Part shown: positions 30,188 to 63,996 of the stretch, piece by piece
How positions within the stretch are numbered: position 1 is the stretch's first letter
Layout of the letters: each line of letters starts with the position of its first letter
Assembly (NCBI GenBank): GCA_017535435.1
Contig: JAFXTY010000060.1
Coordinates: 654 to 64,653, forward strand
Origin: Spirochaetia bacterium
Lineage (GTDB): Bacteria > Spirochaetota > Spirochaetia > CADAEX01
DNA: 64,000 nt
Direction of reading: 5' to 3'
Position numbers and translations under genes: made by a program
The notes under the pieces: model-generated
Database searches by the model: none
The model's input: the letters and a program-made list of their open reading frames with translations, nothing else
Told to the model about the DNA's origin: nothing

Positions 30188-30274
30188 ATAAACAACTCCT
30201 TTCTATTTTTTTTGAGTTGTAATAAATATAACCCCTCAATATTTAACCGTCAACAAATATAAAAATAAAAAAAC

Positions 30275-30303: not shown

Positions 30304-30337
30304 GTAATTGATAGTTATTTATTTATAAGGAGAAATT

Positions 30338-31489
30338 ATGGCAAACAGAATTACACTGAATCAGACATCTTACCATGGAAAAGGGGCAATCAAAGAGATT
30401 GTGAACGAGGTGAAGACTCACGGATGGAAAAAGGCACTGGTCTGCACTGACCCTGACCTCCTTAAGTTCGGCGTCACCAAGAAAGTTACAGATATCCTTG
30501 ACGGAGCAGGTCTTGCTTACGAAGTATATTCCGACATCAAGCCAAACCCACCGGTAGAGAATGTGAAGAGCGGTGTGGAGTTCTGCAAGAAATGCGGAGC
30601 AGACTACATCATTGCAATCGGAGGAGGATCCTCCATGGATACAGCCAAGGCTGTGGGTATCATCATGACCAACCCTGAGTTCGCTGATGTGCGGAGCCTT
30701 GAGGGTGTGGCACCTACAAAGAAGCCTTGTCTTCCTATCATCGCTGTTCCTACAACATCTGGTACAGCTGCCGAGGTTACAATCAACTATGTAATCACAG
30801 ATGTCCAGGCAAAGCGCAAGTTTGTATGTGTGGATGTCCACGACATTCCAGTAATCGCATGTGTAGACCCTGACATGATGATGTCCATGCCTGCAAAGCT
30901 GGCCGCTTCCACAGGTATGGATGCCCTGACACACGCTATCGAGGGCTATATCACAAAGGGCGCATGGGAGATGACAGACATGATGCATCTCAAGGCAATC
31001 GAGATCATCGCACGGTCACTGCGGGCTTCCGTAAAGGGCGATGCAAAGGCACGGGAAGAGATGGCTCTTGGCCAGTATGTGGCTGGAATGGGCTTCTCCA
31101 ACGTAGGTCTTGGAATCGACCACTCTATGGCTCATACTCTGAGCGCTTTCTACGACACACCTCACGGAGTTGCATGTGCAATTCTTCTGCCTACAGTAAT
31201 GGAGTACAATGCTCCTGCTTCTGGCGAGAAATACCGCAACATCGCATGGGCAATGGGAGTGAAGGGCATTTCAACCATGACTCCTGAACAGTACCGCAAG
31301 GCTGCAGTGGACGCAGTGCGCCAGCTTTCCATCGATGTGGGAATTCCACAGAGCCTTAAGGGAATTGTGAAGGAAGAGGATCTGGATTACCTGGCAGAAT
31401 GTGCCATCAAGGATGCATGTACACCGGGCAACCCACGGGATGCTTCTAAGGAAGATGTTCTTGCTCTCTTCAAGAGCCTGATGAAATAA
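30338..31489 (+). CDS. iron-containing (group III) alcohol dehydrogenase, lactaldehyde/propanediol oxidoreductase-like
   Basis: 383 aa; GGGSSMDTAKA NAD-binding motif and His-rich Fe site (…HAIEGY…, …DHSMAHTLS…). Confidence 0.9.
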   Translation: MANRITLNQTSYHGKGAIKEIVNEVKTHGWKKALVCTDPDLLKFGVTKKVTDILDGAGLAYEVYSDIKPNPPVENVKSGVEFCKKCGADYIIAIGGGSSMDTAKAVGIIMTNPEFADVRSLEGVAPTKKPCLPIIAVPTTSGTAAEVTINYVITDVQAKRKFVCVDVHDIPVIACVDPDMMMSMPAKLAASTGMDALTHAIEGYITKGAWEMTDMMHLKAIEIIARSLRASVKGDAKAREEMALGQYVAGMGFSNVGLGIDHSMAHTLSAFYDTPHGVACAILLPTVMEYNAPASGEKYRNIAWAMGVKGISTMTPEQYRKAAVDAVRQLSIDVGIPQSLKGIVKEEDLDYLAECAIKDACTPGNPRDASKEDVLALFKSLMK

Positions 31490-47548: not shown

Positions 47549-48424
47549 ATGAAGTTTGAAGGAATTTATACCGCCCTTATCACACCATTCAATAAGGACG
47601 AGTCAATTGACTGGGGCGCACTCAAGGCCCTTGTAGATTTTCAGGTGGAATCCGGAGTTGCCGGAATTGCACCTATGGGCACCACAGGCGAGAGCCCTAC
47701 AATCATCCATGAGGATCACCTTAAGATTATCGAATTTGTAGCAAGACAGGCTGCAGGCCGCTGTCAGATTATCGCAGGTGCAGGCTCCAACAGCACATCT
47801 GAGGCAATCCATATGACCAAGATCGCAGCAAGCTTCGGAGTAGATGCCACACTGCAGGTTGCACCATACTACAACAAGCCCAGCATGGAGGGTTTCTACC
47901 GCCACTTCATGACAATTGCAGACGCAGCTGATATTCCAATGGTTGTATACAACATTCCTGGACGGACAGGAAAGAACATCGACAATGCCACAATGCTCCG
48001 CCTGGCACAGCATCCAAATATTCAGGCTGTAAAGGAAGCAAGCGGCGATGTGAACCAGATGATGAACCTGATTGCCGCAAAGCCAGACTCATTCACAGTG
48101 CTCTCCGGCGACGACAACCTGGGATTCCTCCTTATCGCCATGGGCGGAAAGGGAATTGTATCTGTAGCATCCAACCTCTATCCAAAGGAGATGAATGCTC
48201 TGTGCAACGCAGCACTGGCTGGCAAGCTTGAAGAAGCTAAGAAGCTCCACTACAAGATGCTTCCATTCTTCAGAGCAGAGTTTGCAGACACAAACCCAGT
48301 TCCTATCAAGTACGCTATGTACAAGGCCGGCATGATCCAGGAAGCTTACCGGCTCCCACTGTGCGAAACCTCTGCCGCTGTAAAGGCTCAGGTGGACGCC
48401 GCAATGGCCAAGCTGGCACAGTAA
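47549..48424 (+). CDS. dapA: 4-hydroxy-tetrahydrodipicolinate synthase
   Basis: 291 aa; TIM-barrel DapA/NAL family, GTTGE motif (PMGTTGESPT) and active-site Lys region (…LQVAPYYNKPS…). Confidence 0.9.
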   Translation: MKFEGIYTALITPFNKDESIDWGALKALVDFQVESGVAGIAPMGTTGESPTIIHEDHLKIIEFVARQAAGRCQIIAGAGSNSTSEAIHMTKIAASFGVDATLQVAPYYNKPSMEGFYRHFMTIADAADIPMVVYNIPGRTGKNIDNATMLRLAQHPNIQAVKEASGDVNQMMNLIAAKPDSFTVLSGDDNLGFLLIAMGGKGIVSVASNLYPKEMNALCNAALAGKLEEAKKLHYKMLPFFRAEFADTNPVPIKYAMYKAGMIQEAYRLPLCETSAAVKAQVDAAMAKLAQ

Positions 48425-48445
48425 TTATTTTATTAGCAAGTATTT

Positions 48446-48474
48446 AGCCCCGGGACAACCCCGGGGCTTTTTTA
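48446..48474 (+). terminator. rho-independent terminator (AGCCCCGGG-ACAA-CCCGGGGCT + T6)
   Basis: Perfect 9-bp GC-rich stem and T-run 22 nt after dapA stop; marks end of the core operon and start of accessory segment. Confidence 0.85.
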
Positions 48475-48557
48475 TGCTTGCGTTTTTAAACGGTACAAAT
48501 GCTTACCAGAAATGAAGCTGTTAGTTTCAACATAAATTCATTTTCAGGAGGTGTTTT

Positions 48558-49226
48558 GTGCAAAACATCAATTTTTTACCATGGATTGGCAAAAATTATC
48601 AGACAGGCCTCGGTCCAAAAGGTCTTCGGGTGCTGGTTTTAGGCGAAAGTCACTATTGTTTCACCCTTGGACAGGGAAAATGTCCAGGATGTTCACTTAA
48701 GAATTGTATTGCCGCAGGTTTTACAAAGGAAGATTTCGAGCAGCAGACAATAGAGTACATCAAGGATATCCTCTATAACAACAAAGGATTGCCTTATCAA
48801 CAGACAGCATTAAGCTTTGAGAGGGCAATCGTGGGCAAGAAGAAACTGACTCAGGCAGAGCGGGAGGATTTTTGGAACAGTGTTATCTTCTATAATTATA
48901 TTCAGAAGTCGCTTCCAAAGCTTGATGGAAAAAGGACAGAGTTCACAGTAAATGACTTGGTTGGTTCAGATTCTGCATTTGATTTCATACTTGGTACATA
49001 TTTGCCTGATCTCATCATTGTCTGGGGGTTCAGGCTGTTCAAAATTTTGCCTCCCTGGGGTTCTGTCCGGTCAGAGCTGGAGCTACCATCGGGAGAAAAG
49101 ACGGATATCAGGATGTATTATGTCTGTGGGAAAAGCATTCCAGCCATAAAGGTGGCTCATCCAAGCTGTCCAAAGGGTCGTCAGTGGGAGTACTGGCATC
49201 AGTTCTACGATGTATTTTTGAATTGA
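48558..49226 (+). CDS. hypothetical Cys-containing protein (first gene of accessory segment)
   Basis: 222 aa; GTG start 6 nt after AGGAGG; Cys cluster CFTLGQGKCPGCSLKNC plus HPSCPKG; no family recognised. Confidence 0.5.
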   Translation: MQNINFLPWIGKNYQTGLGPKGLRVLVLGESHYCFTLGQGKCPGCSLKNCIAAGFTKEDFEQQTIEYIKDILYNNKGLPYQQTALSFERAIVGKKKLTQAEREDFWNSVIFYNYIQKSLPKLDGKRTEFTVNDLVGSDSAFDFILGTYLPDLIIVWGFRLFKILPPWGSVRSELELPSGEKTDIRMYYVCGKSIPAIKVAHPSCPKGRQWEYWHQFYDVFLN

Positions 49227-49245
49227 GATTCTGAAGTCTGCTTAC

Positions 49246-49306
49246 ATATCGGCAATATATAAATGGTATATAAAGTAAAAATACCACTTTATATTTTGCC
49301 GATATT
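49246..49306. promoter_or_regulatory. inverted repeat ATATCGGCAA(49246-55)/TTGCCGATAT(49297-306) flanking an AT-rich hairpin upstream of the Fic gene; candidate operator/promoter region
   Basis: 10-bp perfect reverse-complementary arms ~40 nt apart; TATATA-like -10 candidates between and after them. Confidence 0.35.
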
Positions 49307-49322
49307 GTGTTATTATATAGAC

Positions 49323-50192
49323 ATGGGAAAAGTAGATTATCTGCAGGTCGCCGATATAGCCAAAGCATGGGAAGTCTCAGACCGCAGTGTGCGGAACTAC
49401 TGTTGCCATGGGCGGGTCCCTGGGGCCATCATTGCCGGCAAGACTTGGCAGATACCTGCAGATACCCCTAAACCAAAGCGGCAGATTCGTCATTGCAGGA
49501 AAAAAGAGGAGACTGTTCTGGAGCAGCTTAAGAGGGAAAAGGATTCTGGGTTTAAGGGAGGGATGTACCATCGTATACAGATTGATTTTACTTATAACTC
49601 TAATCATATAGAGGGCTCCCGCCTGACTCCGGAGCAGACCCGCTATATCTTTGAGACCAACACCATCGGGATAACCGATAAAAGCGTCAATGTAAATGAT
49701 ATCATAGAGACAGTGAACCACTTTCGATGTGTAGATCTGGCTATCGAAGGGGCCAAGTCAAAGCTGACCGAAAGTTTTATCAAGCAGCTTCATTTTATAC
49801 TTAAGAACGGAACCTCCGATTCCCGGAAAAGCTGGTTCAAGGTTGGCGAATACAAGCTGCTGGAGAACGAGGTAGGTGGCATGGAGACAGCGGCCCCCGA
49901 AGATGTGAAGCCCCGGATGAAGGAACTCCTTGCCTGGTACAATGCAAAGAAGGTTGTGACCTTGGATGATATTCTTGATTTTCATGTACGGTTTGAGCGT
50001 ATCCATCCGTTCCAGGATGGAAACGGCAGGGTGGGGCGGCTGATTATGTTCAAGGAGTGTTTAAAAAACAACCTAAAACCGATTATAATAACCGAACAGC
50101 TCAAGTGGTTCTACTACCGCGGTCTCAAGGAGTGGTTCCATGAGCGTGGTTTTCTACGTGAGACTTGTCTGGAGGCAATGGAGGGGGTATAA
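49323..50192 (+). CDS. Fic-family protein (AMPylase-type) with N-terminal excisionase-type HTH, class II auto-inhibited
   Basis: Canonical Fic motif HPFQDGNGRVGR; upstream inhibitory-helix motif SNHIEG ([ST]xxxE[GN]) in same polypeptide; N-term MGKVDYLQVADIAKAWEVSDRSVRNYC HTH. Track ORF starts 60 nt earlier (49263) inside the promoter-like AT-rich region. Confidence 0.85.
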   Translation: MGKVDYLQVADIAKAWEVSDRSVRNYCCHGRVPGAIIAGKTWQIPADTPKPKRQIRHCRKKEETVLEQLKREKDSGFKGGMYHRIQIDFTYNSNHIEGSRLTPEQTRYIFETNTIGITDKSVNVNDIIETVNHFRCVDLAIEGAKSKLTESFIKQLHFILKNGTSDSRKSWFKVGEYKLLENEVGGMETAAPEDVKPRMKELLAWYNAKKVVTLDDILDFHVRFERIHPFQDGNGRVGRLIMFKECLKNNLKPIIITEQLKWFYYRGLKEWFHERGFLRETCLEAMEGV

Positions 50193-50201
50193 TTTATAGG
50201 T

Positions 50202-51815
50202 ATGAGTGATAAAATAATTATAAAAAAAGAAGATGAAGGGATACAAAGACTTGAAGTTAGTAACGAAGTTGTTGATAGGCTTAATAATATTTTTCGACGT
50301 GTAATTTGGAGAGACCCTGAAGGAAAAAACGAAGGTTATTTTGACATAAATAAAGATATATCTTTTCATAAAGATCTCTGTGATAAAATATTAGAGAAGA
50401 AAGTATCTGATTATAGTATTGTTGAGATTTTTTATTCTAAGAAAAAAGATGATTCGAAATATGAATACTTATTGCCACCTGAAAAAGAGTTTAAACAGAT
50501 TGATATTAATGAATTTAATACTTTTAAAAGCGAGCCTAAATATACTGAAGGTGGTTATTACTATCTCTTTAATAAATGTTTTATTGAAAAGAATTTTGTA
50601 AAGAATCTCGGAATACCGACAAATAAAGAAGATGGTTTCTTCCCATTATGGAAAGAGTATGAGCAATTTGAAAAGAAAGAATGGATTTGTCAATATCTCT
50701 ATAGGCAGGCACGTTTTAACTGGTATAATAGCGGAAATATAAATTTTTATTATAAACCTGCACAGCCATGGGTAGAATTTTATCATTTTTGCCAATTTTG
50801 CTATACATTAGTTAGAGCCGGGCTTGAAGTGAAAAAAGACAATAAAGGAAAACAGCTGAAAGAGTATAAAAACGATGGATATAAATATCTTATAGATAGA
50901 TATCTTGGGGAAAATATAAAAAAAATTAATAAAATTAAAAAAATAATATCAGATACAAAGGGAAAAACAAGTAAAAAGCAGGATTCATCTTTAGAAAAAC
51001 TAGAAAAAGAGTATTCTTATATAATGGGAAATATCGAATATGGAATAGAAGATGATTCAAAACCATTTCATATAAAAAGCCTTAAAGAAACAATTTTACA
51101 AATAAATTTCCATAAAGTCCATAATAGTTATCAAAAGTATAATTTTTTTAGTTTTGATTCTAATGATTGTGAATCTATTAAAAATATATATAAGAAATTA
51201 AATGACAAAGATTCTGAAGGTGATTACAATATTAGTTTAAAAAATTATTCTCAAATGTTTGATTATATTTTAAAGCATATATCACAATTGTCTAAAGAAG
51301 ACAAGGATACTATAACCTATATTTTTAAAAAAAAGAACTTTAAAAAAAATCCGGAATGCTATGATAAAGATACTGAGACAGAAGGCAATGATAAAGATAC
51401 TGAAGAATCTGAGAATAATGCTTCCCCAGAAAAACATATAATAAGTGGATCAGAAGGTGCTGATGAAATAATGTACAAGAAAGCCCAAGAAGAGAAAATA
51501 ATTAAGATTACTATAAAGATTTTTTGCAAACAATTCCCTTTCGATGAAAGATTTGTTCATTGGTTGAATGGATTGAATAGTTATGAGGAACTTGAATCCT
51601 TTCTTGTTGCGTTTATTCAGCTTAGTAAAAAGGGTAAAGTAAAGGAAGATCTTGCTGAGAAGAAAGTTAAGAATATGCTAATTGATAAATACAATGAAAT
51701 GGAAAATCTAAAAGAATACAGTGATGAAATAATCTCTCTTTTTGAGGAAAGGGTTAAGAAAGTTAAGGATTTGATTAAGAGGAAGTATAATGGAAAAAAT
51801 GACCTTTCTGAATGA
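50202..51815 (+). CDS. hypothetical protein, AT-rich cassette gene 1 (Lys/Asp/Glu-rich)
   Basis: 537 aa uninterrupted ORF in ~1/3-GC DNA; 9 nt after Fic stop; contains internal tandem DKDTE(T/E)EG repeat; no NTPase/nuclease motif found by eye. Confidence 0.55.
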   Translation: MSDKIIIKKEDEGIQRLEVSNEVVDRLNNIFRRVIWRDPEGKNEGYFDINKDISFHKDLCDKILEKKVSDYSIVEIFYSKKKDDSKYEYLLPPEKEFKQIDINEFNTFKSEPKYTEGGYYYLFNKCFIEKNFVKNLGIPTNKEDGFFPLWKEYEQFEKKEWICQYLYRQARFNWYNSGNINFYYKPAQPWVEFYHFCQFCYTLVRAGLEVKKDNKGKQLKEYKNDGYKYLIDRYLGENIKKINKIKKIISDTKGKTSKKQDSSLEKLEKEYSYIMGNIEYGIEDDSKPFHIKSLKETILQINFHKVHNSYQKYNFFSFDSNDCESIKNIYKKLNDKDSEGDYNISLKNYSQMFDYILKHISQLSKEDKDTITYIFKKKNFKKNPECYDKDTETEGNDKDTEESENNASPEKHIISGSEGADEIMYKKAQEEKIIKITIKIFCKQFPFDERFVHWLNGLNSYEELESFLVAFIQLSKKGKVKEDLAEKKVKNMLIDKYNEMENLKEYSDEIISLFEERVKKVKDLIKRKYNGKNDLSE

Positions 51816-52530
51816 GCTTATGAATGCTAATGGTATCTCTATTGCAGATATTTCAAGGTGTCATAATTGCAAGTTTTTTAAAAATTTAAAATACAATGAA
51901 ATATTTAAATGTAATATAAACAATGATAATTCTTTGGCAGTAACTGTTGCTGAGTTATTATATCCAGAAAAAGTGAAGTATATAAAGAATTATTTATTTA
52001 AAGATTCTAAAAATTGGCGAAAAGATTTGGTAAATTATGGCAAACAGTACAAAAAAATAATTATTACTGCAATGTTATTTGATACAGATTTCTATGTATA
52101 TGCCAGTAACTGGTGCTATCTTATGAGATTAGCCGCAGATCAGTATTATGCCAGACATAAAGAAAAAAAATTCTATGTGCTTGACCGGCCCGCTGAGGGG
52201 TATGGTGCAAAGATTTTTGATATTGGAGAGCCAATGGTGCTGGAGGGCACCGGAGTTCTGACTGTGGCTGGCAGATATATTCATGAAGATAATGAAGGGG
52301 ATCCCAGTAAAAAGATAATGAAGACTACCTTTAATTTTGAGTTTGGAAAGGAAGTATTGGAAGGGAAAGACGTTAGAATAACTATAGAGTGTGATGATAA
52401 TGTTAATAAGACTAGAGAAATAGTAATTGATTCCAGGTCTCTACAGGATGGAAAGAATAAAGTTCATAAAACTGTCGACCTAGATTTTGAGAATGGTTTT
52501 GATATTTCTGTAAAAAAAAATATCCTCTAG
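51790..52530 (+). CDS. hypothetical protein, AT-rich cassette gene 2
   Basis: 246 aa; overlaps gene 1 by 26 nt (translational coupling); Cys pair CHNCKFF…C; no family recognised. Confidence 0.5.
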   Translation: MEKMTFLNELMNANGISIADISRCHNCKFFKNLKYNEIFKCNINNDNSLAVTVAELLYPEKVKYIKNYLFKDSKNWRKDLVNYGKQYKKIIITAMLFDTDFYVYASNWCYLMRLAADQYYARHKEKKFYVLDRPAEGYGAKIFDIGEPMVLEGTGVLTVAGRYIHEDNEGDPSKKIMKTTFNFEFGKEVLEGKDVRITIECDDNVNKTREIVIDSRSLQDGKNKVHKTVDLDFENGFDISVKKNIL

Positions 52531-52576
52531 AGAAATTTCTTTCCCCATAAAATCATTATATGGGTAGGAGGAAAAA

Positions 52577-54553
52577 ATGGAAATACTGATTCCAATTGTA
52601 GAAAAAACTGTAGAAGGAAAAACTGAAGTATCATTTCATAGCATAACTAATGTTTACCAGAGAGAGCTTGCCCGAGGTGGAGTAATCGCTGTCAACGAAT
52701 TTGATGAGGAAACAAAGTTTGATGAAGAAACGAAAGGAATATTTGGACAAGATTTGAACCCCTGTCAGGTCATGGTCGAGCCAAGACCCGCTACAGGCAA
52801 GGAAATATCTGCCAATGACATTGTGCTCTTACCAGCAATACCGCTTGGGATATTGCTGGCAATTGAAAAGATGATTAATTATAGATTCTTCAAAGAATAC
52901 TATGACATACTGATTGTTGCAGGCTATGTCGAGAATGGCATATTGAAAGCCATCAATGATAGTCAGCATATTTATGAAGAAGCAAGTAATAATAAGTATG
53001 TTGCACGTTTAATCTCAAATAAGAAGCGAGTTCAATTCCTATATGTGGCCAATGATGATATCGAGATTGTGACAAACAATAATGAAACTCACTGCTGGGA
53101 TGGTACTTATCCTATTTCTGTTTTTCGATTTGCCCCTGATATTCCATATGCCAATATTCTTGAAGAACTATTCACAGTCGTAGGTAATAAAATTGTATAT
53201 TATCCGAATTGGGTTGAGAACGATGGTCTGCCATGGGGACGGAAAGAAAACGATTTTTCAAGAGAAGATATAAAGTATAGAGATGCTTCATATATGTTCA
53301 CATATAAAGATGATGAACTTAAGAGTGTTAGAAAAATTAACAGTGCTGGATTGCCCTATGCCTATTCAGGTCCAATAGATAATCCTGTGTTTCAAGAGTT
53401 TTATTACCATGATTCTGATAAATCTGATAAACCAAATATAACAGTTCTCTACAAGACAAAATCTGGGAATACTGTATATAGAAAAGAGATTAAGAGAGAG
53501 AGTAATAATTCTTATAAGGTGACCTTCTATAACTGCTTGGATGCAGGTCCTTTCTTCTTTAACAGTGATTTTATGGAATATAAGCCTGAAACAATTGACA
53601 GTGTTTGCTCTTTGCCAGATGCATTCATAGGAAAAGAGTGGCTAGTAGAATGTAATCAGCATGGCTTCGTGACTAGCAAGCTTGCTACAAGAAGTAATAA
53701 TGAAATATATGGTATGGAATATTCCTATGATGAAGACGATAAAGCAGGCAACATTTGTAAGGAATATTTTCTTGGTCAAGATGGCAAGCCAATTACTGTC
53801 AATGGGATTGTTGGATATGAAATGCAGTATGACAATAATAATAATATGACAGAGCGGAAGGCATTGGATGCAGAATATAAAAATCTGAATAGAGCTAAAT
53901 TTGAATATGATGAGAACAACAGACAGGTTCGCTGCGAGCTTTATGATAGTCAAGGTAAGTGTCATGTGGTAAAGACAAACTGGAAAAACTTTCCCCGGAC
54001 AATAGAGACAGATTATGGTCATAGCATCTTAAGAAGAAAGTATGATTGGCTTGGATACTGTGTATCCCTGGCAGTTCTTGACGACAAGAATAAACCGACT
54101 TGTGGTAGAGTAGGTAATGCTCTATGCTCAGAGATTCGAAGAGTGTTTAATGAGGGAACTCTGCCAATTGAAATCTCATACCGAGATGAAGAACAAGAGC
54201 TTGCTTGTCGGGATGATGGAGTAGCTGTCATAAAGACCAAGTATGATCCTGATAAAAATATAGCAAAAGAGACTTATCATGGAATATATGGAAATGCAAC
54301 AGAAGATGAACGTGGAATTGCTCAGATAAAGCAATATTATGAATATTATAAAGATGGAAAAATTGGAAGGTTTATATTATTATATAGATTGTCAGAGCTT
54401 GATGATTTATATAAAGATGAAATCCAATTGGGTGAGATTAAGGATGGATTAGCTTGGTTTATGTCAAATCCTGTGAAAGTTCCCAATTTGGCCATAGATA
54501 TAAATGCATATCTTTATAACTTACCCCAAATACCGTTGCCTCTCCATTTTTAA
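52577..54553 (+). CDS. hypothetical large protein, AT-rich cassette gene 3
   Basis: 658 aa; AGGAGG RBS; Asn/Tyr/Asp-rich, no Walker A or known catalytic signature seen. Confidence 0.55.
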   Translation: MEILIPIVEKTVEGKTEVSFHSITNVYQRELARGGVIAVNEFDEETKFDEETKGIFGQDLNPCQVMVEPRPATGKEISANDIVLLPAIPLGILLAIEKMINYRFFKEYYDILIVAGYVENGILKAINDSQHIYEEASNNKYVARLISNKKRVQFLYVANDDIEIVTNNNETHCWDGTYPISVFRFAPDIPYANILEELFTVVGNKIVYYPNWVENDGLPWGRKENDFSREDIKYRDASYMFTYKDDELKSVRKINSAGLPYAYSGPIDNPVFQEFYYHDSDKSDKPNITVLYKTKSGNTVYRKEIKRESNNSYKVTFYNCLDAGPFFFNSDFMEYKPETIDSVCSLPDAFIGKEWLVECNQHGFVTSKLATRSNNEIYGMEYSYDEDDKAGNICKEYFLGQDGKPITVNGIVGYEMQYDNNNNMTERKALDAEYKNLNRAKFEYDENNRQVRCELYDSQGKCHVVKTNWKNFPRTIETDYGHSILRRKYDWLGYCVSLAVLDDKNKPTCGRVGNALCSEIRRVFNEGTLPIEISYRDEEQELACRDDGVAVIKTKYDPDKNIAKETYHGIYGNATEDERGIAQIKQYYEYYKDGKIGRFILLYRLSELDDLYKDEIQLGEIKDGLAWFMSNPVKVPNLAIDINAYLYNLPQIPLPLHF

Positions 54554-54555
54554 TC

Positions 54556-54598
54556 TGAGCGGGACTGAGTAATCAGCCTCGCTTTTTTTATTTTTTTT
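54556..54598 (+). terminator. probable terminator (imperfect hairpin + T7ATTTTTTTT)
   Basis: AGCGG…CC(T)CGCT stem with internal CTGA/TCAG hairpin followed by long T-run immediately after cassette gene 3. Confidence 0.45.
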
Positions 54599-54701
54599 CT
54601 AAAATTTTAATTTTTGTTACCCCAAATATCTATATGAACTATTGAGAGGGCAAAATGGCGTGTTTCGCCATCCCCTCATACATATTAAGTGGAGGAAAAC
54701 T

Positions 54702-55550
54702 ATGAAGAAAGCTTTCATTGCTGTGGACGGTATCTTTGGATTTGACCTGTTCCAGCATGGTAAGGAGCAGTACCACAAGGTACTTGATTTCGGTGGACTC
54801 ATTCAGGATGTCTGCCAGCGTCTGGGGACAAAAGGTGACTGCCAGGTCTTGGTTCCAAAGGTCTTAAGGCGGTGCTACATAGGGGCAACAACTAAGTGCT
54901 GGAATCCAGTCAGGAGAGAGTACGAGACTGCGCTGAGAAATGCCAAGTTCGTAATGCCCGGCAGGCCGCTTTGCAGCAACGGCAAGGAAAAGGGGATAGA
55001 CACTTTGCTCTTCTCTGAAGTCATAGAGGCTGCTCGGTATGACTATTTTGATTACCTAGTGCTACTGACTGGAGATCTGGATCACATCACACTGGTTCAA
55101 GATCTCAAAGAGATGGGGAAGGAAACCATACTGCTCACAGGGAAGGTATGTGGCGAGGATGGTTTGGAGAAGACTGGTTACTCAAAGGAACTTGAGAACA
55201 ACTGTATGGAAACAATAGATATATTTAGCCTTATTGGCGAACCTAAGGTATTTAAAGATGTCCCTGCCATTCCTGCTGTCGCAGCAGATAAGAAGCAGAT
55301 TCCGCAGGTCGTACAGGCAATTGTGGAAATAATGGCAGAGAAATCAAAGGAGGTGGGGAAAACAGCGGTCTTTGCCTACCAGGATATGGTTGAGGCACGA
55401 TTAGTCCAAAACGGCACACAGCTGGGTATGCCACTAGGCGAGTATCTGGTTTCCTTCCCGACAATTTTCAAGGTTGGGTGTGTCTGGTTCTCCCAGAGGA
55501 AGACAGTGTCACTTATTAACACCACTAATACTCTTAAGGAGGTAATATGA
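54702..55550 (+). CDS. NYN (LabA-like, PIN-fold) nuclease domain protein with C-terminal OST-HTH/LOTUS-like domain
   Basis: Start at MKKAF after GGAGGA (track ORF begins 54642). NYN motifs FIAVDG, GKEKGIDTLLFSEVIE, DYLVLLTGDLDHITLVQDLKEMGKETILL; C-terminal ~90 aa helical LOTUS-like segment. Confidence 0.65.
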   Translation: MKKAFIAVDGIFGFDLFQHGKEQYHKVLDFGGLIQDVCQRLGTKGDCQVLVPKVLRRCYIGATTKCWNPVRREYETALRNAKFVMPGRPLCSNGKEKGIDTLLFSEVIEAARYDYFDYLVLLTGDLDHITLVQDLKEMGKETILLTGKVCGEDGLEKTGYSKELENNCMETIDIFSLIGEPKVFKDVPAIPAVAADKKQIPQVVQAIVEIMAEKSKEVGKTAVFAYQDMVEARLVQNGTQLGMPLGEYLVSFPTIFKVGCVWFSQRKTVSLINTTNTLKEVI

Positions 55551-55614
55551 TCACTTTAGCAATCATAGCGTTTATTATCTCAAAACTGTGAGAAGCGAAG
55601 GAAAAATAATAATA

Positions 55615-55803
55615 ATGACTTTTGAAGAAATTAAGAAGCAGATTGAAATAGGCAATCTTGAGTGGAAAGAACTGCTTACTATGAGGGCTTTATTCCCAAA
55701 GTATCGGCAGGATTTAAGACACGAAGTAATTAAGAGGAACATCCCCTGGTGGATGCCATGTAAGGATTGGATTGCGAAAAGAATTGAGAAAAAGATCAAC
55801 TAA
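55615..55803 (+). CDS. small hypothetical protein (62 aa from MTFEEIKK…)
   Basis: Short ORF between NYN and DUF1232 genes; Trp/Lys-rich; weak RBS; could be non-coding. Confidence 0.3.
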   Translation: MTFEEIKKQIEIGNLEWKELLTMRALFPKYRQDLRHEVIKRNIPWWMPCKDWIAKRIEKKIN

Positions 55804-55813
55804 GGAGTAAAAA

Positions 55814-56215
55814 ATGAAATATAACTATGACGACAAAGACCTCAGCAGAGAGTTTGAGGCAAGAAAATCAACTTCTACAAAAGATGTGGATAATGTGCTG
55901 AAGAACGAGGAGAAAATCAAGAGGATGGCGAAGAAGGGAGCGCTGGCCAAGTTCTTTGGAGACATCGTACTGTTTTTCCAGCTGCTGGGTGATTATACCA
56001 GAGGAAGATACCGGAAGGTTCCTTTGCGGACGATTGCCGCTATTGTAGGCGCATTGGCCTATGTCTTGAGCCCTATAGACATTATCCCAGACTTATTTCC
56101 GGTAATCGGTTATGTAGACGATGCCGGAGTGATGGCCCTCTGCCTGAAGCTTGTTCAGTCAGATATCGACCATTATCGTACATGGAGAGAGGGTAACAAC
56201 AAGAAAGCTGCGTAA
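55814..56215 (+). CDS. DUF1232 (YkvA-like) membrane protein
   Basis: 133 aa; signature …PIDIIPDLFPVIGYVDDAGV… typical of DUF1232. Confidence 0.65.
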   Translation: MKYNYDDKDLSREFEARKSTSTKDVDNVLKNEEKIKRMAKKGALAKFFGDIVLFFQLLGDYTRGRYRKVPLRTIAAIVGALAYVLSPIDIIPDLFPVIGYVDDAGVMALCLKLVQSDIDHYRTWREGNNKKAA

Positions 56216-56374
56216 TTATCAATGGGGCGCCCTGCTTTTTTTGCAGGGCGATATTTAGAGTCCAACATTGAACCCCCAGAAAATCATATAAAAAGTAGAG
56301 AAGATTAAAAGGGCAGCCTGACAAGGGCAATTTTGAATTGAATAGAGCGCCATAGGGCTACCAAAGGAGGACAG

Positions 56375-57364
56375 ATGAAAAAGAGAAAATTAGTTAGGGG
56401 ATTAGTCGAATTTGTACTGGTCATGGCATTCTTGTTCACAGTTGTTATCTGCATTGGGGACAGGATAAGATTGTCTGGCCACAAGGAGCCGGTGTTCGAA
56501 AACGCAAAAGTGGTACCCGAAGCGAACTATAATTTGAATGCGGAGACACAAATGGCTATGGCTACTGCAAAGGAAGTTGCATATCAGTATGCTTGCGACG
56601 AGTTGGACAAATGGATAGCAGAGATAATGAAAGAGACAGACCGTTTCGCTAATGAATATTTTGAATATGGAGCAGAGAACAGCCGGGGGCTTTCAGCAGT
56701 CTACCATGATGTAATGCATAAGTTGATTAGTTCGCATAAGACAGCAAACGAAGCATTGATGGAAGACTTGGAGCAGCAGATTTCATGTCATCTTTTTAAC
56801 AAAGAGGCAGCACAGGCAAGAATTACAAACATAACAAACGAAACTGTAGCGGTCTACATGAAGACTTTTGGCCGGGAATTAGCCAAGATTCAGGAGAAGC
56901 ACAGTATACCTCAGCCAGTGTGGGACAAGCATATTTACCATCTCTGCTCCATAACCGCAGGCTTTGACTCAAGAAGTGTTCCTATGACAACTAAAGTTGT
57001 TGTCTCAACAGCAGCCGGTATTACTCTTAAGGTTGCAACTCCACTTGTTGCCAGAGTTGGACAGCATGTAGGAGAGAAGTTTGCTGCCAAAGCAGGGACA
57101 AAATTTGTTGCTAAAAACTTTGGGAAGTGGATTCCCGGACTTGGAACGGTTATTGCAGCAACAGTAATAGGCTGGGATTTGATAGATTACAAGCTGACTG
57201 CAGAGAAGAACAAACGTGCTCTTAATGCAGGGTTTGATTTGTATTTTCAGGAGATGAAAACCGAACTTCTTGGACCGACTGACGACAGCATCATGGGGTC
57301 TATTACCCTGTTGGAAAACAACATTAAGTCTAAGCTTGCTTTAAGTAAGGAGGACACAATATGA
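56375..57364 (+). CDS. uncharacterised single-pass membrane protein, paralog A
   Basis: 329 aa; N-in TM (VEFVLVMAFLFTVVICIG), long helical domain, C-terminal Gly/Ala-rich hydrophobic segment (…GLGTVIAATVIGWDLIDY…) and conserved tail QEMKTELLGPTDDSIMGSI. Confidence 0.6.
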   Translation: MKKRKLVRGLVEFVLVMAFLFTVVICIGDRIRLSGHKEPVFENAKVVPEANYNLNAETQMAMATAKEVAYQYACDELDKWIAEIMKETDRFANEYFEYGAENSRGLSAVYHDVMHKLISSHKTANEALMEDLEQQISCHLFNKEAAQARITNITNETVAVYMKTFGRELAKIQEKHSIPQPVWDKHIYHLCSITAGFDSRSVPMTTKVVVSTAAGITLKVATPLVARVGQHVGEKFAAKAGTKFVAKNFGKWIPGLGTVIAATVIGWDLIDYKLTAEKNKRALNAGFDLYFQEMKTELLGPTDDSIMGSITLLENNIKSKLALSKEDTI

Positions 57365-58344
57365 AAAATTATATCAGGATTATATGCTATCTGATTGCTG
57401 CTGTATTTGTTATAACAGTTGTTACCATATTTGGCTATTCCAACTCTTCAGAGCCGGAGGCCCCGCATTTTGAAAGCAGACAGATAGAAGAGAAGGAGTT
57501 TGTCTTTGACCACAGGATAGACATGGAAATACTTGATTCCTTGGACTTGGCTGAACAGAAGGCCAAAGAATATGCAGCCGGACGGCTTGATCGTTGGATT
57601 TCTGGGTTGATGGTGCGTACTGACAGTTTCCTTGACGAATATTTTAACCTGCTCAATGTCAAAAAGAGAGAGGTATCTGCAGCATGGCATACCGTCAGTC
57701 ATAAAATCAGCAAGAGTTCACCTTCGGCAGAAGATGTCATTATGGATGACCTGATGGCAAGATTTGAAGAGAAGGTTCTTAACCGGAATGATGCACAGCG
57801 GATGCTGGAGGATATAGGTAACAACGCTATAATGGTTTTTATTGACTTATTTGAACATGGCCTTGATTTGATTAAGGAAAAGTATAGTGTACCTGAACAG
57901 GACTGGACGAAACATATTTCCAGTTTGTGTGGCTATGCGGCAGACTTTGAGGCACGGCGGGTATCTATTATAGCCAAGATCTCAATAGCGAGCTCAGCTG
58001 TACTTGGAACGGAAGTTGCCTATAGAATTGTGTCCTCCGTTGTTAGTAAGCTTGGAAAGAATCTTGCAATTAAAGCTGGAACAAAGGCAGCCGGTTCAAC
58101 AGGAGCAAAGGCCGTAAGCAGTGCTGTCCCGATTGTTGGTTTTGCTATCACAGCAGCTGTAATAGGCTGGGATATCTATGACTCTATCACCACTTCAGAA
58201 CGGAATAAACGGGATATGCGAGCTGGAGTTGAACAATATTTCCAAGAAATGAAGGCATATCTTCTTGGCCCAGCCCAGGACAGCATCATAGGCTCTATTG
58301 TTTTATGGGAAAAAGAAGTACGGAACAGGATTCAGACACGATAA
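57361..58344 (+). CDS. uncharacterised single-pass membrane protein, paralog B
   Basis: 327 aa; ATGA overlap with paralog A; alignable along its length (…AVIGWDIYD…, QEMKAYLLGPAQDSIIGSI; KYSVPEQDWTKHISSLCGYAADFEARRV vs KHSIPQPVWDKHIYHLCSITAGFDSRSV). Confidence 0.6.
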   Translation: MKNYIRIICYLIAAVFVITVVTIFGYSNSSEPEAPHFESRQIEEKEFVFDHRIDMEILDSLDLAEQKAKEYAAGRLDRWISGLMVRTDSFLDEYFNLLNVKKREVSAAWHTVSHKISKSSPSAEDVIMDDLMARFEEKVLNRNDAQRMLEDIGNNAIMVFIDLFEHGLDLIKEKYSVPEQDWTKHISSLCGYAADFEARRVSIIAKISIASSAVLGTEVAYRIVSSVVSKLGKNLAIKAGTKAAGSTGAKAVSSAVPIVGFAITAAVIGWDIYDSITTSERNKRDMRAGVEQYFQEMKAYLLGPAQDSIIGSIVLWEKEVRNRIQTR

Positions 58345-58355
58345 GGAGGAAAGGA

Positions 58356-58589
58356 ATGACATTAAACTATTTTATGAACTTGCTTGAGGACCATGGATGG
58401 GATGTTGAGAGTGACCCTCTTTGTTTTACTAATGGAAATGCCGAGATTCACATTGGGTTTAATGAGTATGACGAAGAATATATTGAAGATGGTGCTCTTC
58501 TTTGTCATGTCACATGGATCAAGTTTACAAGGCGAAGTATGACAATTTTTTGGGATGATGGCGATAGTTGGAGATATAACTATTGGTGA
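58356..58589 (+). CDS. small acidic Trp-rich hypothetical protein (77 aa)
   Basis: Start MTLNYFMN… 6 nt after GGAGGAAAGGA; 12 nt downstream of paralog B; acidic, aromatic-rich. Confidence 0.4.
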   Translation: MTLNYFMNLLEDHGWDVESDPLCFTNGNAEIHIGFNEYDEEYIEDGALLCHVTWIKFTRRSMTIFWDDGDSWRYNYW

Positions 58590-58701
58590 AAGAAAAATAG
58601 GGTATTTTAAGCCCTATAAGAGGGGGATAGAATTATTGAGGGCGACGTCCAAACCTGCAGGGGAGTTGCCATATTTGAACCATAGAGAACCTCCTTACTT
58701 T

Positions 58702-58735
58702 GGGGGACCGAGCAATCGGTCTCCCCTTTTTATTT
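58702..58735 (+). terminator. rho-independent terminator (GGGGGACCGA-GCAA-TCGGTCTCCCC + T-run)
   Basis: GC-rich stem with one bulge, followed by TTTTTATTTT; separates membrane-pair operon from patatin-LRAT unit. Confidence 0.6.
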
Positions 58736-58799
58736 TCAGAGTTGGGTGGAATAATCTTCGTGAATACTGTAATCTCTTATATGGGAGAAAGCTAATACT

Positions 58800-59879
58800 A
58801 TGTTTTTCAAGCGTAAGATAGGGTTAGTTCTGGCAGGGGGCGGCGGCAAAGGAGCGTACGAGCTCGGTGTCTGGAAGTACCTGTCAGAGATAGGCCTTAT
58901 CAAGAAAATATCTGTTATCTCAGGCTCTTCGGTAGGGGCGCTGAACGCCATCCTGCTGAACCTATGTGATTTTGATACTGCTGTAGACATATGGACTACC
59001 CAGCTTGAGAGCAATATCCTTGACTTCAAATCCACCACAAAGCGGTCCGGGGCTATCTTCAGCAGGGAAGGGCTCTATCGGATTATGGAGCAGCTGGATT
59101 TCAGCAAGCTGCCTGCACTTAAGAAAAAGATATATGCAACCTGCCTCAATACTGATACTAAAAAACCTGAGAGCTTCTGTCTGAACAATTATGACGAAGA
59201 GACTGTGAAGCAGCTCCTGTGTGCCACCAGCGCCATTCCCCTTGTGTTCCAGGGTGAGAAGATTTTCGGAAACAACTATATTGACGGTGGTTGGGGAGAT
59301 GAGGTCCCTATCCAGCCTCTGCTGGATGAGGGGTGCACCGATGCAATCGTGGTGAACCTTAAGCGTAGTTATCATGTGGATTATTCCGGCCTTGGGATCA
59401 ATACAGTTGTGATTCATCCAACTGTCAACCTGGGGGACAACTGGTTTGGTATTCTTGACTTCTCTGCCAAAGGGGCACACAGACGGATGAAGCTGGGCTA
59501 TGATGACTGCAGAAGAAGGTTTGCACCACTCCTTAAGACATTGCGGGGACACTTGAGCTTCAGCCTCAGCGGTGTCCGGGCCAAGAAGATAAATGCCATG
59601 ACTGACGAGGAAATCCTTCAGAGGACCTTGGAGGTGATATCTGCCCATCCTGAGCATCTTAATGAAATACAGGGGTATTTCAACATCGATTTCCTGACGG
59701 CCGGTGGCGAGGTGTTCTGGAAAGAGCTGGCAGAATATCATGGCTGGCGGTTCCAGGAGAACAATATCACCAGACATATAAGACTGATTGATCCCACCAA
59801 TTTCCGCCGGGCCTGGGGCAGGAGACGGCAGCTGGTGGATTACTGCCGCTCTTTTTTAATTGGACAGTTGGCGAAATAG
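58800..59879 (+). CDS. cytoplasmic patatin-like phospholipase
   Basis: 359 aa, no signal peptide; oxyanion LVLAGGGGKGAYELGV, nucleophile GSSVGALNA (GxSxG), catalytic IDGGWGDEV (DGG). Confidence 0.85.
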   Translation: MFFKRKIGLVLAGGGGKGAYELGVWKYLSEIGLIKKISVISGSSVGALNAILLNLCDFDTAVDIWTTQLESNILDFKSTTKRSGAIFSREGLYRIMEQLDFSKLPALKKKIYATCLNTDTKKPESFCLNNYDEETVKQLLCATSAIPLVFQGEKIFGNNYIDGGWGDEVPIQPLLDEGCTDAIVVNLKRSYHVDYSGLGINTVVIHPTVNLGDNWFGILDFSAKGAHRRMKLGYDDCRRRFAPLLKTLRGHLSFSLSGVRAKKINAMTDEEILQRTLEVISAHPEHLNEIQGYFNIDFLTAGGEVFWKELAEYHGWRFQENNITRHIRLIDPTNFRRAWGRRRQLVDYCRSFLIGQLAK

Positions 59880-59903
59880 CCTTTCCGGAGGTATATTTAT
59901 AAT

Positions 59904-60368
59904 ATGACAAGTATCACTGAAAAAGTTCCGCTCTCTGGCGATGTGATAGTCGCAGACCGGGGATTATACAAGCACTATGGTATTTATATCGGGAACGGCC
60001 GGGTCATCCACTATTCGGCTGGCATGGGCATAGAGCTGGATGCAGCCAAGGCTAAGATAATCGAAACTTCCCTTGCTGAATTCCTGGATGGCAGCGCCCT
60101 CTATGTGGAGGAGTCGGATGAGCCGGGCGCCTTCCCGCCGGACCGTGTGGTGGAGAGGGCCAGATCCATGGTGGGCCACCTACATGGCGAGTACAACATT
60201 GCCTTCAACAACTGTGAGCATTTTACCCACTGGTGCAAATACGGAACTAAAGAGTCGAGCCAGGTGAACACGGTCCTGAAGGCAGTGGTGGGCGTGGCCG
60301 CCATTGCCTTGGGACTTGCCGCCGGGGGCAAGTTCCTGGGCGGGAAGGGTGGAAGAGGCCTGCTTTAA
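59904..60368 (+). CDS. LRAT/PLAAT-like (NlpC/P60 superfamily, H-box/NCEHF) protein with C-terminal membrane tail-anchor
   Basis: 154 aa; His box HYGIYIGNGRVIHY and catalytic-Cys motif NCEHFTHWC as in LRAT/HRASLS acyltransferase-phospholipases; C-terminal VLKAVVGVAAIALGLAAGGKFLGG hydrophobic tail; 24 nt after patatin gene, GGAGG RBS. Confidence 0.7.
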   Translation: MTSITEKVPLSGDVIVADRGLYKHYGIYIGNGRVIHYSAGMGIELDAAKAKIIETSLAEFLDGSALYVEESDEPGAFPPDRVVERARSMVGHLHGEYNIAFNNCEHFTHWCKYGTKESSQVNTVLKAVVGVAAIALGLAAGGKFLGGKGGRGLL

Positions 60369-60961
60369 GCCTTCTTTCCCAGCCCTATCACAAATGTTTC
60401 GAAGGAATTGCTCCGGGATGCCTGGGGCTTCAATATCTTCACTGCGCTGAAGTGCTTCTTCATATCCTCAAGAATCTCTTTCTCCTTGCCTCCCTGGAAC
60501 ATCTTGAACACAAAGTTACCGCCAGGGGTAAGCACCTGCAGGGCAGTATTGTAAATCGATTCTATCAGCTGTATTGAACGTTCGGTATCCACTATCTTGT
60601 TGCCTGTGGTGGATGGAGCAGCATCGCTCACTACTGCATTGTAAGGCCCTTTCTCTGCCAGCAGCCTTATGTTTTCGGGGTCAAAGGCATCGCCCTGGAC
60701 AAAGAAGAAGTTGGGGTTCTTTATAGTTATGCTCAAAGGCTTGAGGTCGATGGCTGACAAAAAACCGCTTTCTCCCAGCATCCTCATGATATACATGGTC
60801 CAGCTGCCTGGGGAAGCCCCCACATCCAGCACCTTGAAATCTTTCTTTATGACGCTGAATTTCTGCTGGATCTCCTGCAGCTTGTAGACAGAGCGAGCAG
60901 GGTAGCCTTCCTTCTGCGCCTTCTTGGTATAAAAATCATCGTCCCAGGTTCCTTTTTTCAT
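60365..60961 (-). CDS. rlmE: 23S rRNA (uridine-2'-O)-methyltransferase RlmE (FtsJ)
   Basis: 198 aa; ARSVYKLQEI…, SAM motif VLDVGASPGSW, FtsJ K-D-K-E pattern (…VVSDAAP…, …FVFKMFQG…). Confidence 0.82.
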   Translation of the reverse strand: MKKGTWDDDFYTKKAQKEGYPARSVYKLQEIQQKFSVIKKDFKVLDVGASPGSWTMYIMRMLGESGFLSAIDLKPLSITIKNPNFFFVQGDAFDPENIRLLAEKGPYNAVVSDAAPSTTGNKIVDTERSIQLIESIYNTALQVLTPGGNFVFKMFQGGKEKEILEDMKKHFSAVKILKPQASRSNSFETFVIGLGKKA

Positions 60962-63150: not shown

Positions 63151-63996
63151 TCAACTTTCCAGAAATAATTTTATTTTTTCCAGCCGTTTCTCTGCAACTT
63201 GGCGTCCTGCTTCGTAGCACCGCTGCAGTTCATCAGGATTATGCTCTATCCGGGATATTCCCAGAGGTTTCTCAGGGCACAGCACTATAGCCTTTCCCTC
63301 TTTCTCCTGCTGGAATGCATAATCGTGCTGCCGGTTGTAATCGATATGGCGGTTCTCCATCTTTGCAAGGAGCTTGGGATAGCGGCGCAGAGAAAGTCGC
63401 ATTGGCTTTATAAGGGAATCAGGCTCTTTGATGAAATCCTTTGGCTGGGTCAGAATCACAATGTTCTTGTCGTAGCCCATCTCCTGGAACTTTGCCAGGG
63501 GGATTGAGTCGGTCATGCCTCCATCCAGAAGCTTGTAGCTGTCCACCTTCACCACGCTGGAGACTAATGGCATGCTGGCGCTGGCTCTCATCCATGTAAG
63601 GTCGGTTCCATATCCTGTCTTCAGCTCCTTGTAGATAGGTTCCCCAGTGAGGCAGTCTGATACCACCACGTAAAAGCGCATAGGGTCTTTGGCAAAGGTA
63701 TCGTAGTCGAAAAGATCCAGCTTGTTTGGAATCACATTGTAGCAGAAGTCGGCGCCATAGAGGTCGCCTGTAAGGAGCAGGGATCGGAGGCTGCAGTACC
63801 GCCAGTTGCGGGCAAAACGCTTGTTGTACCGTATTACACGGCCTATCTGATGTGATTTATAGTTGCAGCCGAAGGTGGCGCCGGCGGAGACGCCGATTGC
63901 GCCGTCAAATTTGATGCCGTGCTCCATCAGCACATCGCAGACACCGGCGGTGAACATGCCCCGCATGGCTCCGCCTTCCATTACCAGTCCAGTCAT
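63151..63996 (-). CDS. patatin-like phospholipase
   Basis: 281 aa; LVMEGGAMRGMFTAGV (GGxRG), GVSAGATFG (GxSxG), LLDGGMTDSIPL (DGG). Confidence 0.85.
   Translation of the reverse strand: MTGLVMEGGAMRGMFTAGVCDVLMEHGIKFDGAIGVSAGATFGCNYKSHQIGRVIRYNKRFARNWRYCSLRSLLLTGDLYGADFCYNVIPNKLDLFDYDTFAKDPMRFYVVVSDCLTGEPIYKELKTGYGTDLTWMRASASMPLVSSVVKVDSYKLLDGGMTDSIPLAKFQEMGYDKNIVILTQPKDFIKEPDSLIKPMRLSLRRYPKLLAKMENRHIDYNRQHDYAFQQEKEGKAIVLCPEKPLGISRIEHNPDELQRCYEAGRQVAEKRLEKIKLFLES

Follow-up and report, generated by a model that had tools for sequence, protein, structure and literature searches.

A probable hotspot of self-contained gene cassettes between dapA and a patatin gene in an uncultured rumen spirochaete

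We analyzed a 64,000-nucleotide stretch of DNA from an uncultured rumen spirochaete (Spirochaetia bacterium, assembly GCA_017535435.1, contig JAFXTY010000060.1, positions 654 to 64,653; hereafter the window), in which a strain-variable slot of 10.4 kb separates dapA from a patatin-like phospholipase gene (Table 1). From left to right, the slot encodes a cysteine-rich protein of 222 aa, a helix-turn-helix (HTH)-Fic protein, three AT-rich genes (A537, A246, and A658), an NYN-domain protein, an open reading frame (ORF) of 62 aa, a DUF1232 protein, the paralogous membrane proteins M329 and M327, and a small acidic protein. The core genes dapB-dapA on the left and patatin-LRAT-rlmE-ispA-rhomboid on the right enclose this position in every locus whose contig reaches far enough. 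Pfam, NCBIfam, and PHROGs provided no family for the 222-, 537-, 246-, 658-, 329-, 327-, and 94-aa proteins (the last being the longer form of the small acidic protein), and PADLOC likewise had no match for A537, A246, A658, the 222-aa protein, M327, or the small ORFs.

Table 1. Positions of the slot, its genes and signals, and its flanks within the window
Feature	Position	Strand	Remarks
dapA, conserved left flank	47549..48424	+	Pfam DHDPS 1e-88
Strain-variable slot	48427..58788	.	blastn breakpoints vs L004, L006, L010, L013, L014, L017, L002, L008
dapA terminator hairpin, then T-run	48446..48468	+	dG -21.9 kcal/mol, z -4.7
222-aa Cys-rich protein, GTG start	48558..49226	+	sole occupant in L013, L014, L017
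Inverted repeat, arms 17-18 bp	49246..49305	.	TATCGGCAATATATAAA, 22-24 nt spacer, TTTATATTTTGCCGATA; z -6.5
HTH-Fic protein (probable start)	49323..50192	+	Pfam Fic 2e-18, weak HTH_17 match
A537, first module gene, 537 aa	50202..51815	+	starts 9 bp after Fic
A246, second module gene, 246 aa	51790..52530	+	26-nt overlap with A537
A658, 658 aa	52577..54553	+	N-domain of ~210 aa, then YD/RHS-like beta-hairpin repeats
Terminator hairpin and T-run closing the Fic-A537-A246-A658 unit	54557..54600 (hairpin 54557-84)	+	z -3.75
NYN-domain protein, predicted PIN-like RNase	54702..55550	+	Pfam NYN 1.7e-6
62-aa ORF	55615..55803	+	called in all assemblies
DUF1232 small membrane protein	55814..56215	+	Pfam 3e-15
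Hairpin CGCCCTGC-N7-GCAGGGCG, weak T-run	56228..56250	+	z -3.5
M329, N-terminally anchored membrane protein	56375..57364	+	first of paralogous pair
M327, M329 paralogue	57361..58344	+	4-nt gene overlap
Small acidic protein	58356..58589 (77 aa; 94 aa from 58305)	+	both lengths called in independent assemblies
Terminator hairpin, last element of slot	58702..58725	+	z -4.2
Patatin-like phospholipase	58800..59879	+	Pfam 1e-27
LRAT/NlpC-P60 family protein with hydrophobic C-terminal tail	59904..60368	+	Pfam LRAT 5e-28
rlmE (FtsJ), convergent core gene	60365..60961	-	Pfam FtsJ 5e-48

The edges of the slot were set by comparison with contigs that encode exactly identical DapA or RlmE proteins and were aligned to the window (loci are designated by L numbers). 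The sequences used for comparison all come from metagenome assemblies or metagenome-assembled genomes (MAGs); the source is a rumen Spirochaetaceae/Spirochaetia bacterium, and its closest MAG is RUG13243. In blastn alignments, homology to all other strains stops at 48426-48429, just past dapA, or at 49228 where the 222-aa gene is shared, and it resumes at 58789-58799; the slot is therefore placed at 48,427-58,788, the true accessory extent among conspecific strains. The patatin gene is present on the right flank in all close loci, which form a species-level clade, and is absent from the more distant L026-L028. The LRAT gene is kept in all relatives and directly follows dapA in L026-L028. A first-pass annotation of this DNA, made from its letters alone, had drawn a variable segment at 48,476-60,368; the variable locus stands, with its left edge now at 48,427 and its right edge moved inward to 58,788, patatin and LRAT being fixed flank in close relatives. 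Most of the remaining layout was borne out. Pfam finds the Fic, NYN, DUF1232, patatin, and LRAT genes where they had been listed and agrees on the flanks (dapB-dapA on one side; rlmE on the minus strand, polyprenyl synthase, and rhomboid on the other), and the two membrane proteins called paralogous are about 35-37% identical. The uneven base composition that it described is visible as a drop in guanine-plus-cytosine (GC) content from ~0.50 to 0.26-0.36 across 50.0-54.5 kb. Across the slot, GC content is 0.26-0.46 versus ~0.50 outside, and GC at third codon positions (GC3) is 0.21-0.30 in A537, A246, and A658 versus 0.55-0.65 in backbone genes. As had also been claimed, scanning of the segment revealed no integrase or transposase domain (Pfam), no tRNA, and no flanking direct repeats; an Rfam scan of 47.5-61.5 kb returned sub-threshold chance matches only. 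The proposed minimum of four transcription units agrees with four terminator-like hairpins (z -3.5 to -4.7), one each behind dapA, A658, DUF1232, and the gene for the small acidic protein; three are followed by a T-run and the one after DUF1232 by a weak T-run.

Behind an identical or near-identical dapA, the slot exists in at least eight occupancy states. It is empty in L004, L006, and L010 and in the MAGs L021 and L025, in which the dapA stop codon, one terminator, and the patatin ATG lie within 66-70 bp. The 222-aa gene stands alone and intact in L013, L014, and L017. In L002 a Fic gene (79% identical to that of the window) is followed by an XRE regulator gene and a short ORF for a Zn-ribbon protein; L005 and L008 carry XRE plus other genes; L023 has Fic alone, 5 bp ahead of patatin; and L029 has LRAT-like, DUF1232, and Fic genes ahead of patatin. 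In L022 and L024 the slot is filled by a 6.8-kb cassette of 29-35% GC with genes for a radical-SAM protein resembling viperin, an SNF2 helicase similar to DpdE/ZorD, and an XRE regulator. The full island is represented by the window, and five independent samples yielded the window-type allele end to end (99.8-99.98% identity). PADLOC matches in the other alleles (pVip-like, DpdE/ZorD-like SNF2, and XRE/capH-like) do not add up to a complete validated system at any of the ~20 loci.

The cassette of L022 and L024 comes from two sister species (L022:11046-17636 and L024:11063-17654) and has the order 318-aa protein, radical-SAM, SNF2, XRE, and 120-aa ORF. Its radical-SAM protein matches pVip at 3e-22 and its SNF2 protein a DpdE/ZorD-like family at 3e-119; the cassette as a whole matches no named system. 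L024 also has an extra patatin paralogue, 62% identical, upstream of the resident patatin. A second, smaller variable point lies between patatin and LRAT (window 59880-59903). The window has no gene there, L023 (12953-14324) has an insert of 1.4 kb, and L037 (17430-18738) has DUF3990 plus an HTH_3 gene.

Strain differences read from metagenomic data might be an assembly artefact, that is, chimeric joins between organisms or strains. At L008:3170-3420 a scaffold indeed links one allele with an empty site and one with a filled slot over a run of N, so both alleles coexist in one rumen sample and were mis-joined by the scaffolder. In addition, L029 (contig JAFZYX010000155.1) has the dapA of this spirochaete (95% identical) and a hotspot allele, yet it sits in a MAG labelled Ruminococcus sp., probably through a binning error. 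The five samples with the full allele were, however, assembled by different pipelines, and recovery at such identity from five samples means that this allele is no chimera of assembly. For the empty-site allele and for the 222-aa-only allele, three or more independent assemblies agree on the exact junctions, and the flanks are collinear on both sides in single contigs of up to 108 kb. An assembly origin of the variability is thus extremely improbable.

The breakpoints at 48426-29, 49228, and 58789-99 are flush with gene ends or terminators, and no target duplication was present at any junction compared. This pattern fits cassette exchange by homologous recombination. Together with the number of states, it also agrees with the first-pass view of a chromosomal variable locus without mobility genes that was not recently integrated. 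The two flanks differ in divergence: L004 and L002 share ~81-83% nucleotide identity with the window on the right (patatin to rhomboid) and 94-96% on the left, with an identical DapA protein. Because the right flank is far more diverged than the left, this asymmetry suggests that recombination has taken a different course on each side of the hotspot. A hairpin of the GCCCTG-loop-CAGGGC type with a T-run, as found after DUF1232 in the window, also occurs ahead of patatin in L010, L013, L002, and L008 and after DUF1232 in L029; the terminator preceding patatin in the window is unrelated to it. Shared cassette ends such as this hairpin could serve as internal recombination joints. We read the dapA-patatin interval as a mobility-gene-free hotspot of self-contained cassettes with proposed conflict or defence cargo, and place the probability of this reading at about 0.68.

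The same island, in the same gene order, is also found in a diverged lineage represented by L037 and L038 from other samples. Alignment to related genomes, the check recommended by the first-pass annotation, thus showed both variability and a shared island, which is therefore an old, recombining allele and not a one-off acquisition. Protein identities between the window and L037 change sharply along the locus. They are 99.7% (mvk), 99.2% (dapB), and about 94% (dapA) on the left flank; about 70% for the 222-aa protein and about 83% for Fic; about 35-40% for A537, about 53% for A246, about 71% for A658, and about 79% for NYN; 64.5% for the 62-aa ORF, 98.5% for DUF1232, 93% for M329, and 98.8% for M327; and about 90% (patatin) and about 88% (LRAT) on the right flank. 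The ratio of nonsynonymous to synonymous divergence (dN/dS) is 0.005-0.08 for the backbone and reaches 0.51 for A537, 0.23 for A246, 0.34 for A658, 0.21 for NYN, and 0.45 for the 62-aa ORF, with an unsaturated dS of ~0.5 for A658 and NYN. For DUF1232 and M327, dS is 0.05-0.15 (0.05 for M327), lower than the 0.2-0.9 of flanking core genes; that block has therefore been exchanged recently. Judged from these comparisons, the island is a mosaic of blocks with unlike histories, as expected if homologous recombination has acted repeatedly rather than if one insertion had occurred.

The 222-aa protein, the leftmost occupant, has homologues of 25-30% identity among hypothetical proteins on conjugative plasmids. 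It had no match in Pfam or the PDB and none in the phage collection. The family shares the invariant motifs PWIG, LGESHY, FYNY, and HPS. Two of these, LGESHY and HPS, recall motifs A (GE..) and B (HPS) of the uracil-DNA-glycosylase (UDG) superfamily; profile searches lent this no support. An hhalign comparison of the family with the protein downstream of the module in L043, itself a marginal Pfam UDG match, was weak, at 34% probability, and we take the resemblance as a lead rather than a finding.

The HTH-Fic gene follows a palindrome whose arms are perfect and identical upstream of Fic in five of five loci (window, L002, L023, L029, and L037), with a differing spacer. From this conservation, the repeat is probably an operator for the protein's own HTH domain, and operator, promoter, and Fic gene appear to travel together. 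The start at 49263 in the first-pass annotation probably gives way to 49323, downstream of the palindrome; the Fic assignment itself is sound. The protein matches the PADLOC hidden Markov model for PDC-S04 (PDLC04836) at 1.1e-102 over residues 83-306, a family common in rumen MAGs. It is not SoFic, with 25.7 bits against NCBIfam NF046030 versus a cutoff of 550, and the PADLOC SoFic match (2e-22) spans the Fic core only. Fic and A537 are separated by a 9-bp gap in the window and overlap by 8 bp in L037.

Downstream of Fic, A537-A246-A658-NYN forms what gene-order comparison indicates is a conserved module, present in only a handful of metagenome contigs. By phmmer, the order is kept in L033, L037/38, L039-41, L043-49, and L061 and typically runs A537-like, A246-like, often a ~110-aa ORF, a protein with the A658 N-domain, NYN, and often a ~90-aa Zn-ribbon ORF. 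In L033 the upstream fragment matches the A537 C terminus only marginally (E 0.08), and L037 identified this fragment as the diverged allele. The A246 protein matches the proteins that accompany A537 homologues in L039, L041, and L043 at 1e-14 to 1e-17, and the NYN protein matches the NYN gene that follows each copy of the module at 1e-58 to 1e-60. A LOTUS domain had been proposed for the latter; its C-terminal 92 aa have no OST-HTH/LOTUS match in Pfam even at a permissive threshold (E<=5). The module is AT-rich in every host, at 24-34% GC and a GC3 of 0.16-0.30, with neighboring genes at 37-53% GC. It is also rare: A537 has six homologues among 1.84 billion representative proteins, and A658 has one among 5.8 billion clustered proteins. 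The A537 protein is mostly helical and rich in Lys, Glu, and Asn, with one conserved Cys-Gln motif in the family alignment, and its AlphaFold2 model from a shallow alignment is all helical (pLDDT [predicted local distance difference test] 61); that of A658, also from a shallow alignment, reached a pLDDT of 42. Sequence and profile searches of the PDB with A658, A537, and the family alignments A2, A3, and A6 returned nothing meaningful, and Foldseek found no PDB match at E<=1e-3 for the A537 and A658 models. Resemblances of A658 to an OspA-like single-layer sheet and of A537 to 14-3-3 proteins had TM-scores of <0.15 and are not evidence; a by-eye likeness of the A658 N-domain to a Lon-protease domain found no support and was dropped.

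Proteins sharing the A658 N-domain range from 400 to 1235 aa and differ in what follows it. The 400-aa forms have no further C terminus, those of the window and L043/44 have YD/RHS-like repeats, and the homologue at L061:6184-9891 has a STAND P-loop NTPase plus ankyrin repeats (N-domain E 3.9e-77; nSTAND3 1e-5, motif GKSNSGKT; Ank 5e-53). A constant N-domain with a variable C terminus, as in NLR-like immune sensors, points to a sensor role for the family. The same repeats would also suit a different reading, in which the locus is an accessory membrane- or lipid-remodelling or interbacterial-antagonism locus rather than an antiviral one, patatin, LRAT, DUF1232, and the membrane pair would all have membranes as their target, and the YD-repeat protein is polymorphic toxin-like and diversified by bacterial competition. 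The patatin and LRAT lipase domains, the YD/RHS-like repeats in larger A658 homologues, the high dN/dS, and the several membrane proteins encoded are all compatible with it. The A658 protein, however, lacks a signal peptide, PAAR/VgrG or another secretion partner, an RHS core-end, and a toxin domain; Pfam RHS_repeat does not match it and is sub-threshold in the L043/L044 homologues. Repeats that are absent or replaced by STAND plus ankyrin in homologues are typical of cytoplasmic sensors, and the associations of the module are with CRISPR-Cas, JAB-E1, AbiD, and WYL, not secretion genes. We therefore regard the membrane or antagonism reading as unlikely.

A JAB-E1 fusion protein (687-719 aa) is encoded 3-60 bp ahead of the module, in the same orientation, in L043-45, L046/47, and L061; HTH-Fic takes this position in the window and L037. 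The fusions at L043:7781-9940, L046:5024-7117, and L061:1633-3786 carry an extra N-terminal ~250 aa and are preceded by 112-aa and 50-aa ORFs; they may belong to a form of the bacterial ubiquitin-like conjugation operons that has not been described before. Other neighbors of the module include an IetA-like AAA protein, an ankyrin protein (PDC-M72A), AbiD, WYL, HD, and IS66.

The IS66 transposase near the module copy in L043, the foreign composition of the three AT-rich genes, and the distant homologues of the 222-aa protein on conjugative plasmids are what one would expect of a decayed remnant of a site-specifically integrated element (a prophage, integrative and conjugative element, or integrative island) that had lost its integrase. 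Such a remnant does not sit well with the missing integrase, transposase, tRNA, and att-like direct repeats, with junctions flush with gene ends, or with many unrelated cargoes at the same site. The module is also unmatched among viral contigs in IMG/VR, where no member of the A537 family was found; the NYN protein has no homologue in phage or plasmid collections; and the arrangement persists in a lineage with a dS of ~0.5 or more. A remnant of this kind is accordingly improbable.

The right part of the slot holds the membrane unit. M329 has seven homologues among 5.8 billion proteins and a weak PADLOC PDC-S29 match; neither M327 nor the small acidic protein has a Pfam family, and Pfam detected no CARF or SAVED sensor domain in M329 or M327. 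At L050:9266-15819 and in L051, an M329/M327-like pair lies between a CRISPR array with a 69-bp period and cas1-cas2-cas2 of type III-A; DUF1232 and LRAT genes come next, 2 kb further downstream. A DUF1232 gene is also close to an M329-like gene in L052 and, as in L050, near membrane-pair homologues, and it is found near the module in L046. In the part of the window examined for cas genes (43.7-64 kb), none was present. Going by gene neighborhoods at few loci, DUF1232, the membrane pair, and LRAT recur together in what look like defence-type contexts.

Beside the observed variability, junctions, composition, gene order, rarity, fast protein evolution, and domain fusions, we set a working model in which all functional roles are predicted from sequence. 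Cassettes bounded by terminators would be gained, lost, and swapped through the conserved flanks and shared cassette ends. The window allele comprises the 222-aa protein (unit 1); a probably autoregulated HTH-Fic gene followed by A537-A246-A658 (unit 2); NYN, the 62-aa ORF, and DUF1232 (unit 3); and the M329-M327 pair with the small acidic protein (unit 4). The A658-family protein, with its constant N-domain and variable repeat array, would recognize the invader, the NYN RNase would act as effector, A537 and A246 may be regulatory or adaptor subunits, and control of the module would lie with the AMP-transferring enzyme encoded ahead of it (Fic in the window, JAB-E1 elsewhere).

Several points weigh against the hotspot reading and this model. 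Homologous recombination as the likely route of exchange is deduced from the junction pattern, and mis-joining of strain mixtures is possible in metagenome comparison data, visibly so in L008. No defence system with experimental validation is present in the window, its PADLOC matches being PDC-S04 and a weak PDC-S29. PDC-S04 is itself an unvalidated PADLOC candidate, and one deletion test in a native host showed no defence activity. The Fic gene occurs in the same slot without the module (L002, L023, and L029) and so may be an independent neighbor rather than a part of it. Because a terminator lies between A658 and NYN in the window, the two may not be co-transcribed. The window A658 itself has no STAND NTPase in Pfam searches. 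For A537, A246, and A658, no fold or family is detectable and the AlphaFold2 models are of low confidence, which makes guesses of the roles as sensor, adaptor, and effector. The "defence" label of the first-pass annotation holds as an association and falls short of a validated system; a defence role of the cargo is suggested by such associations.

With its core flanks, variable cargo, and low GC, the locus has the structure of a core defence hotspot, a class of sites described by core-gene flanks, low GC, and no single mobile-element family (PMC10250203). It resembles cDHS1 and cDHS2 of Pseudomonas aeruginosa (Johnson et al. 2023, PMC10250203) and the mobility-gene-free hotspots of Escherichia coli (PMC10121019) in its fixed core flanks and variable cargo, lower GC, mostly unknown cargo, lack of a single mobile-element family, and proposed transfer by flank recombination. 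Unlike these hotspots, the dapA slot is far smaller (0-10 kb), has no flanking tRNA or tmRNA, and holds very few recognizable validated systems; it also lies in an uncultured rumen spirochaete, has a nested patatin-LRAT slot, and shares its whole island between two diverged lineages.

The components of the slot resemble other systems in part. The A658 family shares with STAND/NLR-like conflict systems built on effector-associated domains (EADs), including Avs-type sensors (Kaur, Burroughs, Iyer, Aravind 2020/2021; PMC8195603) a constant N-domain with swappable repeats, one member with a STAND NTPase, an NYN nuclease next door, fast evolution, and sporadic occurrence. It departs from them in that the window A658 has no NTPase and its N-domain matches no described EAD or Death-like family. 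In hhalign comparisons the A658 N-domain had no homotypic domain in common with NYN or A537, and the partners A537 and A246 are undescribed. The JAB-E1 fusion directly ahead of the module in relatives is reminiscent of 6E/Bub operons (Iyer et al. 2006, PMC1779556; PMC11601596), but those relatives have no DUF6527/BubE, recognizable Ubl-E2, or Ubl with a C-terminal Gly, and the window has no ThiF, JAB, or DUF6527 in Pfam searches. The window Fic protein shares the AMP-transferase fold of Fic/DOC with PDC-S04 and SoFic and differs from them in its N-terminal HTH and its dedicated palindromic operator. Like ancillary membrane genes of type III CRISPR systems, M329 and M327 have homologues inside a type III-A locus (L050/L051); the window pair, in contrast, has no nearby CRISPR-Cas, and the association comprises one locus type in two samples.

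A bolder possibility, which we hold tentatively and consider more doubtful than the hotspot itself, is that the module represents an undescribed multigene immune system. It would combine an AMP-transferring enzyme (a JAB-E1 fusion in most hosts, HTH-Fic in the window), A537-A246-(~110 aa), an A658-family sensor whose new N-terminal domain is coupled to interchangeable repeats (YD or ankyrin, with or without a STAND NTPase), and an NYN RNase as output, all of it extremely AT-rich in every host; the membrane pair and DUF1232 would then be a second new module, recruitable by type III CRISPR-Cas.

Two features outside the slot were recorded. A second patatin-like gene lies on the opposite strand ~3 kb past the hotspot (window 63151-63996, minus strand) and is annotated as Patatin plus DUF6363 in precomputed annotations of L011/L012. 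Another sharp GC dip (0.36) occurs at 29500-30500, with TrpB-like and iron-containing alcohol dehydrogenase-like genes on either side, judged by eye from the translation; it holds a 156-aa lipoprotein-like ORF (29717-30187, minus strand) with a signal peptide ending in Cys.

If the hotspot reading is right, the core defence hotspot architecture known from cultured Proteobacteria would also be present in uncultured rumen Spirochaetota. Its anchor genes (dapA on one side and patatin/LRAT-rlmE on the other) would allow strain-level cargo to be mined in thousands of rumen MAGs. The window allele would contribute two very rare candidate systems, unmatched in PADLOC-DB v2.0.0 save for the weak PDC-S29 match of the membrane pair. 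The JAB-E1 fusion, the STAND-ankyrin fusion, the type III-A position, and the fast evolution are concrete, testable leads for new immune mechanisms, and the two candidate systems also open a route to studying the coupling of nucleotidyl-transfer enzymes to RNase effectors.

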